From positions 25,048,001 through 25,112,000 of the forward strand of contig NC_073392.1 in NCBI RefSeq assembly GCF_028641065.1: a DNA stretch of 64,000 nt, given 5' to 3'. This DNA comes from Leucoraja erinacea. Its lineage: Eukaryota. Shown piece by piece: positions 28,199-30,010 of this stretch (position 1 is its first letter; the number at the start of each line of letters is the position of its first letter). Both the position numbers and the translations under genes were made by a program. The notes beneath the pieces are model-generated. The model saw nothing but the letters and a program-made list of their open reading frames with translations, did not search any database and had not been told where the DNA came from.

Positions 28199-30010
28199 AT
28201 GGACCAGGCGGAGGGTGCGGTCAACAGCGCTGGACCTTTCACCGCCCGCGGCACTCTGCTCCTCACCTGTGTGCTGCCCACCTCCTGCCCCTCCAACAGC
28301 CAGAGTGAGTCGCTGGACCTGGAGATGCCCACACACTCCACAGTGTGGACCCTCCGCCTGTTGGCCTGGAGCCAGGCTGCCGGGCACAGTGCCACGCCCA
28401 GCCTCTACCAGCTGAACTCCCCCCACCACTTCCGGCTGCTGTACAGGAAGGGTCCCACCTGGTACGAGATGTTGGAGGACCAGCATACCCTGGCCTCGCT
28501 GGGGGCGGTGAGATATTGGAAGAGCTTGGGCCTCAAGAAGGGTCAGATCCACCTGGAGCCCCAACCCAAGGAGACCAGATCCAGCCAGGACTTTTGGAAC
28601 GGGCTGACCAACCTGGTGGGTCTGGATGTCCGGTCCAGAGTGGCCAGCCAGCAGAGTGAACTGAATTGGGCACGCAGGATGTTTGCGGTGGTCAGGCAAG
28701 TGGATGTCCAACGGCGGGACGGGAGAGCCTTCGCCATGGAGCCCTGCCTGGTGTCCAGCCCCCTCCCTCAAGGTCTCCTGCCCCAGGTCGACAGGGAGAT
28801 GGCGGTGACCATCTATCATGCTGGCACCAGCCGGAAGATGAAGGTGGACCTTCGCTACACTCCGGGCGAGGTTGTGCAAGCCTACCGTGAGGTAACGCCA
28901 CCAGAGGTCGCCCCTGACCTGGTCTTGAAGGTCTGCGGGCGCCAGGACTACCTCACCGGCTGCCGGCCGCTGGTGGACTTCTCCTGGGTCCGCCACTGTC
29001 TGAAGAACAAGGAGGAGGTCCACCTGGCATTGGTGGAGGCCCCGTGCGCAGAGGAGGATGGGGTGGACGGTGTGGAGTGGCCACTGGTGGACGAGGCCAC
29101 GGAGCTGACCACTGGACACCAGGAGCTGGATGGGGAGGAACCCCCCATCATCTCGCTCTGGGACTGCCACCACCGCTTCCGGGTGAAGCTCCTGGGCTTG
29201 GACCTCCCCGCCCCGCCCAGCGATGGGCCTCCCGCAGTCTACGTGGAGGCTGCCGTGCTCCATGGGGCCAGTGTCCTGTCCTCCGTCGCCTCACCCCCAC
29301 GACCCCTTGCCCAAGAGATGATGTGGAACGTCTGGCTTAGCTTGGACATCCGGGTGGAGAACCTGCCCCGAGGATCACGGCTGAGGCTGGCAGTCTACGG
29401 GCTAGACGACCAGACACTCCCGTCCTGGGACCCCAGGCAGAGTCCAAGGGAAGGGAACCCTGGGCAGGGCAAGGCTGGACATCTACACTCGGTCAGTCTG
29501 CTCCTGATAGACCACCACTCGCTCCTGAGGCAGGGTGAGTACGTGTTGCACATGTGGCCGGGATCCAGGGACAACCAAGGAGCGGACCTGCTGAGCTCCC
29601 AAACCAACCCCGAGCTCGTGACCTCTGCTGCCATCTGCATCTTGCTTGACACCTACCATCGACCAGTGGCTTTGCCCGGACAATCAGACAAGGAGTCGGA
29701 ATCGTCATACTTCGGGCAGACATCCCACGGTGAGAAGAGGGACCTGCTGCAGCGGTTCAGGGAAGAGTGCGGGCTCTACAGCCGCCCGCTGCCCATTTTC
29801 TTGGCCACGGTGCAGTGGGGAGACCGCAGTGTGGTACAGGAGGTTCACTGGCTCTTTCACCGCTGGCAGCCCCAACAGCTGGACCTGGCGGTGGCCCTGG
29901 AGCTGCTCGGTGCGGACGTCGCTGACCGTGAAGTCCGCAAATTGGCGGTGAGGCGGCTGGAGGGCTTGGACAATGACCATCTCCTGAGGTATCTCCTCCA
30001 GTTAGTCCAG
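28199..30010 (+). CDS. PIK3CG-like: PI3K p110gamma-like coding exon 1 (ABD, RBD, C2, helical domain start)
   Basis: Acceptor CTCGCAG|G at 28189, ATG at 28199; [48 protein letters not shown]. The start codon could lie in an upstream exon. Confidence 0.92.

Follow-up and report, generated by a model that had tools for sequence, protein, structure and literature searches.

An ancient second p110γ paralog in a ray, from a vertebrate clade without the Gβγ-binding helix hα1

The window analysed here, a stretch of 64,000 nucleotides of Leucoraja erinacea (contig NC_073392.1), encodes the batoid ortholog of a second catalytic subunit of class IB PI3K, which is older than the split between cartilaginous and bony fish. 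A preliminary description of the window had proposed that the Gβγ-binding helix was deleted, within a p110γ-like ortholog, from the linker that joins the C2 and helical domains. Comparison across the family shows instead two stacked events in an ancient paralog, namely the decay of helix hα1 in the paralog stem, where a disordered linker, rich in Ser/Pro/Thr and free in length, took the place of hα1 and the DPL/L564 loop, and a later shortening of the linker in rays. The ray gene gives the appearance of a deletion because rays later shortened a linker that was already without the helix. The helix loss is hence broader than was first proposed, extending to the whole clade, and the predicted uncoupling from the canonical activators is less certain.

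Identity of the gene

A homolog set of 235 distinct proteins was collected with the window protein (best 120 of 169 matches) and a canonical shark p110γ (best 120 of 366 matches) as queries, and kinase-domain identity divided these proteins, together with the window protein, into a canonical group of 120 and a paralog group of 116. In a quick tree of 40 hand-picked rows of the 236, rooted at the midpoint and assessed by SH-aLRT only (no bootstrap), the two groups are separated by a branch of 1.02 with an SH-aLRT of 100. The window protein lies outside the PIK3CG clade, in which a canonical p110γ ortholog would be expected; it groups with the paralogs of sharks, coelacanth, amphibians and ray-finned fish and adjoins Narcine inside the chondrichthyan paralog clade. 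It shares 62% identity with the Narcine paralog, 58% with a shark paralog and 43-46% with canonical proteins. In both clades, Narcine, Callorhinchus, Latimeria, Ambystoma and Danio are represented by one protein apiece.

The paralog was found in sharks, rays, chimaera, coelacanth, caecilians, salamanders, bichir, paddlefish, gar, bowfin and teleosts, the species names being taken from partly truncated database labels. The sarcopterygian members, from coelacanth, caecilians and salamanders, are P0007, P0008, P0010, P0015, P0018, P0027 and P0385, and a further match to the paralog search, XP_043934659, is presumably from a lungfish. No named frog or amniote protein stood among the best 120 of 447 matches to a caecilian query, and a later loss of the paralog in frogs and amniotes is suggested. 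The existence of the paralog is already in print, as one sentence (Philippon et al. 2015, PMC4617754); the accessible part of that paper treats the duplication only, with nothing on structure or regulation, places it in the gnathostome ancestor, and reports the second p110γ from Actinopterygii and Chondrichthyes and its loss in Sarcopterygii. The ray gene is very probably this second p110γ. The accessible passages of PMC3024228 and PMC8805411 contain no mention of a second vertebrate copy, and neither the helix loss nor the regulation of the paralog was found described in the open literature, subscription journals having been largely outside the scope of that search.

The terminal branches of the two rays are long (0.47 and 0.41, against 0.07-0.14 in sharks), and the ray lineage carries extra small deletions in the RBD and in the RBD-C2 linker. 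This long and compositionally biased branch suggests relaxed constraint.

Gene structure and neighbourhood

The gene, as delimited by tblastn with orthologs and by splice ends, consists of ten coding exons on the + strand (28199-41799), which encode 1033 amino acids with no internal stop and are separated by GT-AG introns in every case. Coding exon 1 (28199..30010; 604 aa) encodes the ABD, the RBD, the C2 domain and the first half of the helical domain, recognised in Pfam as PF19710 (the PIK3CG-type ABD), PF00794, PF00792 and PF00613, respectively. Exons 2 (30669..30734, with AG/GT ends), 3 (33882..34107) and 4 (34715..34809) are followed by exon 5 (35350..35496), with the P-loop lysines and K833, D836 and D841, and by exons 6 (35642..35732) and 7 (37478..37608). 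Exon 8 (38039..38150) carries the DRH catalytic loop and N951, exon 9 (39544..39701) the DFG motif and the activation loop with K973, and exon 10, with the stop codon (41536..41799), keeps W1080, has E for R1076 and is without the C-terminal tail of 7-8 residues. The Pfam domains of exon 1 and the kinase exons found by tblastn make up the complete class IB (p110γ-type) order of ABD (PF19710), RBD, C2, helical and kinase domains, and p110γ/PIK3CG (PDB 7MEZ, 8SO9-8SOE), which shares this order, is the best match in both sequence and fold. GC3 of exon 1 is 0.80. An AG resembling a splice acceptor is present 10 bases 5' of the ATG and suggests an upstream non-coding exon (28199-28260, +).

Upstream of the kinase gene, a single ORF of 204 aa at 11271..11885 (+ strand) encodes a CCDC71-family protein (Pfam PF15374, E 7.7e-39). 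The neighbour is a clue to large-scale duplication because CCDC71L, according to the accessible part of PMC6277418, belongs to the human PIK3CG locus, and an origin of the paralog in this way would fit it. A comparison of this ORF with P0122 gave no result. Fragments of LINE-type reverse transcriptase and Tc1-type transposase were noted at 9403-10925, 19707-20138, 32106-32525 and 54856-55362, one of them in intron 2 of the kinase gene; the part of the window from 42 to 64 kb was screened via its longer ORFs. In two database models, P0040 and P0391, the paralog is joined to a 7-transmembrane receptor domain (PF00001); both are probably annotation fusions with a neighbour.

The C2-helical linker of the ray protein

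The translation has D484 at 29648, P493 at 29675-29677 and E512 at 29732, and the C2-helical linker between them (G494-G511; 29678..29731, + strand) comprises 18 residues, matching exactly, in letters and in place, the peptide quoted in the preliminary description. In a phmmer alignment to the p110γ chain of 7mez, P493 corresponds to human P530 and G511 to A569, with everything in between left unaligned. The human linker had been put at about 39 residues and is 39 (531-569); the ray linker is 21 residues shorter, in frame, where about 20 had been estimated, and the absent segment does include hα1 (548-560, with R552/K553), as well as the D562-P563-L564 loop. The linker start, D484-P493 (human 521-530; 29648..29677, +), is conserved in both paralogs, and the linker is one of three regions named as p101-binding. 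On the other side, the helical domain's first predicted helix (residues 513-524; 29732..29770, +) is the equivalent of hα2/α13 (568-578), with D for E573, L retained at L574, Q for W576 and R for H577. The window protein is hence without the canonical Gβγ site (hα1 N549-K553, L564 and E573/L574/H577), and it has the helix-less, low-complexity linker and the clade-fixed residues of the second paralog (for example E at 1076, W at 1087, N at 653).

The shortened linker lies within a single open exon (ORF 28130-30031), and a search with four canonical copies of the missing segment did not find it elsewhere in the 64-kb window (tblastn; best E 0.09), which rules out a hidden exon with the helix. 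The region 28100-30300 is spanned in one piece by contigs of runs X1, X3 and X7, from three studies under three organism labels, although X1 may be the window's source sample, and the indels listed for these contigs are intronic only, at 30182 or beyond. The linker stretch is not an assembly error, because contigs from three studies carry it without indels in the exon; the check for an assembly deletion that had been proposed thus goes in favour of a true feature.

The same evidence bears on the wider idea that the feature reflects an assembly deletion, a hidden exon or a decaying pseudogene. The long terminal branch of the ray could be read in this way, as could the RNA record, which is limited to 2 reads (a single pair) at the end of exon 1 in the roughly 5% of run X24 that was read. 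However, all ten exons end in canonical splice sites. The coding differences of exon 1 from run X3 number 19 (13 synonymous over 441 sites, 6 non-synonymous over 1371), an estimated dN/dS of about 0.15, with 23 of X3's 24 differences listed. Since the helix is also absent in 116/116 paralog proteins, an artefact or a pseudogene is scarcely credible. Among the differences listed for X7, 27 are coding changes (12 synonymous, 15 not), of 74 over the stretch.

Loss of hα1 and the DPL/L564 loop across the clade

The hα1 motif was detected in 119/120 canonical and in 0/116 paralog proteins, so that the orthologs, to which the preliminary description had also turned, restore the segment in no case. 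Among 32 further paralog matches, the 31 linkers that could be parsed are without the motif, and the last one is without it by inspection. Over the span P530-F578, canonical linkers measure 42-75 aa (median 47) and paralog linkers 21-192 aa, with a Ser/Pro/Thr content of 47% in the paralog versus 17%. Sharks and chimaera have 41-44 residues in this span, without the helix, Narcine has 24 and the window protein 26. A species-specific deletion was rejected as the cause of the helix loss, as the shark orthologs of near-normal length are also without the helix.

The age of the element was judged against an outgroup of 148 representatives, taken from among the best 150 of 10,505 matches in a 50%-identity library; 7 close to vertebrate rows and 5 in which the region was not covered were dropped, leaving 136. 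A PSSM of human 553-567 built from the outgroup PI3Ks scored at least 5 bits in 120/120 canonical proteins, in 124/136 outgroup rows (leave-one-out) and in 0/116 paralog proteins. Because it matches the outgroup and the canonical proteins but never the paralog, the hα1-loop element is, on this profile, ancestral and nearly universal among PI3Ks, and its loss derived. A number of pan-PI3K residues were lost together with the helix (D562, L564, L567, L574, W576, P586, K591, D632, D653 and R722), and these would pack against the lost element. E573, L574, W576 and H577, each found in 120/120 canonical proteins, are scrambled in the paralog, which further differs from p110γ in the N-terminal basic run (108/120 canonical versus 1/116 paralog proteins) and in the absence of the C-terminal tail of 7-8 residues.

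A structure prediction had been suggested as a check, and its outcome agrees with the absence of the helix only within limits. AlphaFold gives coil with pLDDT <50 at residues 494-514 of window exon 1 and at 529-559 of the full-length shark ortholog, whose best fold matches are otherwise p110γ structures (TM 0.83-0.90); the alignments held paralog rows only, with no canonical control, and a helix at 557-584 of the shark model starts at low confidence.

Consequences for Gβγ binding

The preliminary description had taken R552/K553 to be required for activation by Gβγ. In the accessible part of a cryo-EM study (PMC10187307, a preprint), the contacts with Gβ are N549, Q550, L551, E573, L574 and H577, and R552 and K553 are called indirectly involved; hα2 (568-578) forms half of this interface. 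A second study, as far as it was accessible, places the interface entirely on hα1 and cites the RK552DD mutant (PMC10068899). It was further reported that the helical-domain site is dominant in p110γ-p101, that L564S abolishes Gβγ activation, and that a second Gβγ site on p101 was never observed occupied alone (PMC10187307). The paralog would have neither the dominant site on the catalytic subunit nor the L564 contact through which Gβγ binding is passed on to the kinase C-lobe. Direct Gβγ activation via the paralog p110 has very probably been lost, and the loss of direct Gβγ binding is itself highly likely from the sequences compared.

It may be asked whether the catalytic subunit still has a Gβγ-binding site, remodelled on the retained hα2, which is half of the cryo-EM interface (PMC10187307) and still a predicted helix; the window protein even has D and L at 573 and 574. 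Across the paralog, however, position 573 is A (43), D (28) or H (9), position 574 is C (41), R (18) or S (13), and H577 is mostly R. None of the 11 hα2 positions is at least 90% conserved in the paralog, versus 9/11 in canonical proteins, and the second study has the interface on hα1 entirely (PMC10068899). A remodelled site is therefore quite improbable.

The loss has engineered counterparts in the p110γ mutants RK552DD, L551A, L564S and DASAA, which remove the same Gβγ site, the allosteric relay or the Ras site (accessible parts of PMC10187307, PMC10068899, PMC6770443). These are point changes in an intact fold, whereas the paralog is without the whole element and has changes at P586, K591, D632, D653 and R722. 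Another comparison is with p110γ phosphorylated by PKCβ (pS582, pS594/595), in which the N-terminal helical domain is disordered and which is a possible model for partial disinhibition; according to the part of the report seen, loosening or unfolding of this domain raises p110γ turnover about 2-fold, which is weak in comparison with activation by Ras or Gβγ (PMC10392983). The effect of phosphorylation is transient, unlike the disorder in the paralog, which is permanent. Position 582 is S in 102/116 paralog proteins and C in the window protein. A [LF]RSx[ST] motif just before hα2, in 34/116 linkers (teleost), is a possible lineage-specific phosphorylation site.

Catalytic residues and adaptor face

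D946, R947, H948, N951, D964, F965, G966 and K973 are present in 116/116 paralog proteins, and K833, D836 and D841 in 115/116 (one gap); the window protein has the full catalytic set (K833, D836, D841, DRH, N951 and DFG). Within the kinase domain, 204/367 positions are at least 90% conserved across the paralog, and in the activation loop K973 is retained and position 980 is R, as it is in 139/141 outgroup rows. The paralog would accordingly be an active class I lipid kinase, and the catalytic integrity first proposed for the ray protein is borne out at the level of residues. Other positions of the domain have shifted: R1076, which is aligned with p110α H1047 in the accessible part of PMC3024228, is E in 112/116 paralog proteins, T1024 is S in 113/116 and F1087 is W in 114/116.

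These residues also bear on a reading in which the paralog is a kinase of low activity or mainly a scaffold, the C-lobe being inefficiently opened without the hα1-DPL contact. The abolition of Gβγ-driven p110γ activation by L564S (PMC10187307, in the part accessible) would agree with it, as would the near-universality of the lost element in PI3Ks and the apparent dispensability of the gene in some lineages, no amniote or frog being named among the best 120 matches to the caecilian query. The near-invariance of the catalytic, P-loop and ATP-pocket residues checked in the 116 proteins, and the conserved kinase domain and activation loop, argue against it and make it distinctly unlikely.

The interface with p101 comprises the C2 domain and both linkers, with D369 as a contact (PMC8397274, accessible part). 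On this face the paralog keeps D369 (116/116), R362 (116), K364 (115), P371 (115), E407 (115), Y523 (115) and P530 (116), and the window protein has D335 (29201..29203, +) as the retained equivalent of human D369, the residue in contact with the Gβγ-binding domain of p101. D369 is D in only 28/141 outgroup rows, 50 of the 141 being gaps. Of the three regions that bind p101, the RBD-C2 linker is altered in the window protein, being shorter by 5 residues and having P at F350, which speaks against pairing with p101. On the C2 domain, the p101-binding face looks conserved, although the conserved residues may be structural. Catalytic residues, D369 with the C2 face, W1080 and the CCDC71-family neighbour are all features shared with p110γ/PIK3CG. 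Both p101 and p87 occur in Chondrichthyes, Actinopterygii and Sarcopterygii (PMC4617754, as far as accessible).

Ras-binding site

The residues that bind Ras, changed in the DASAA mutant, are T232, K251, K254, K255 and K256 (PMC6770443, accessible part). The window protein has K, V, P, E and a gap at these positions, respectively, and is thus without the canonical Ras residues; its RBD helix region (28883..28918, +), in which K251 is replaced by V and K255 by E and K256 falls in a gap, is 10 residues shorter than in human. Lysine or arginine at both 251 and 255 is found in 116/120 canonical and 8/116 paralog proteins, the eight being all six other chondrichthyan proteins in the set, coelacanth and gar. 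In the paralogs of chondrichthyans and coelacanth, T232 is replaced by K. The uncoupling from Ras that had been proposed therefore probably holds for the ray, which has neither K251 nor K255, but not for the clade, since eight members keep both, and a clade-wide loss of the Ras lysines was ruled out. On these sequences the erosion of the Ras site is lineage-specific, unlike the loss of the helix, and direct Ras input has probably been lost in this ray.

Regulation of the paralog

The reading that we favour, tentatively and at somewhat less than even probability, is that of an active class IB kinase whose partner is still p101/p84 and which its adaptor brings to the membrane, the direct Gβγ site being absent and the helical brake partly released. 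The paralog would most likely still pair with a p101/p84-type adaptor through its C2 face, and its control would lie mainly in adaptor-mediated membrane recruitment, through Gβγ on p101. Its basal state would be one with the helical-domain brake partly released, and in this ray direct input from Ras would probably be lost in addition. Adaptor binding and the basal state are weaker claims, from the sequences, than the loss of direct Gβγ binding. The route through p101 only may also be weak, because the helical site is dominant, L564S abolishes Gβγ activation and Gβγ on p101 only was never observed (PMC10187307, part seen); the small size of the de-repression by helical unfolding, relative to activation by Ras or Gβγ, likewise counts against this reading.

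The preliminary description had held that a hitherto unknown activating input was implied. This does not follow, given the second Gβγ site on p101 and the C2 face for p101 that looks conserved. A paralog fully uncoupled from Gβγ and Ras, and driven by a new input such as phosphorylation of the linker or a partner on the disordered linker or on a paralog-specific surface, is nonetheless conceivable, if rather unlikely. In its favour, neither the dominant Gβγ site nor the L564 relay is left, with L564S abolishing Gβγ activation even in the presence of p101 (PMC10187307, part seen), both Ras lysines survive in only 8/116 proteins, and the N-terminal basic run and the C-terminal tail are also lost. 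Many positions of the paralog are fixed for another residue (for example R1076 to E in 112/116, F1087 to W in 114/116, T997 to R in 106/116 and D904 to N in 109/116), at least one S/T-P site is found in 106/116 linkers (median 3), and the [LF]RSx[ST] motif in 34/116. However, S/T-P sites are also found in 90/120 canonical linkers, and the paralog linker is conserved neither in sequence nor in length across the clade (21-192 aa; 0 positions at 90% conservation), evidence against a single docking motif. The retention of the p101-facing C2 residues, and of the K251 and K255 equivalents in sharks, chimaera and coelacanth, likewise speaks against full uncoupling.

Implications

The occurrence of the paralog in coelacanth, caecilians and salamanders corrects the published loss in all lobe-finned vertebrates. 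The way in which Gβγ binding at hα1 is passed on, via L564, to the kinase lobe, and whether the N-terminal helical domain acts as a brake, are active questions in work on PI3Kγ and in allosteric drug design, and a vertebrate clade without the element but with the catalytic core makes them directly testable. Studies of PI3Kγ in zebrafish are affected, since the paralog XP_021329311 bears the same database name as the true p110γ and should be wired differently. It is possible, though doubtful on the sequences at hand, that the paralog is, in sharks, rays, bony fish and some amphibians, a fifth class I PI3K catalytic subunit which has shed a helix-loop element retained by PI3Ks across eukaryotes and is deaf to Gβγ, and in most lineages also to Ras, and which would be governed by an undescribed input or run without the helical brake. 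If true, it would provide a natural, long-optimised test of the roles of hα1 and L564, accessible in zebrafish.
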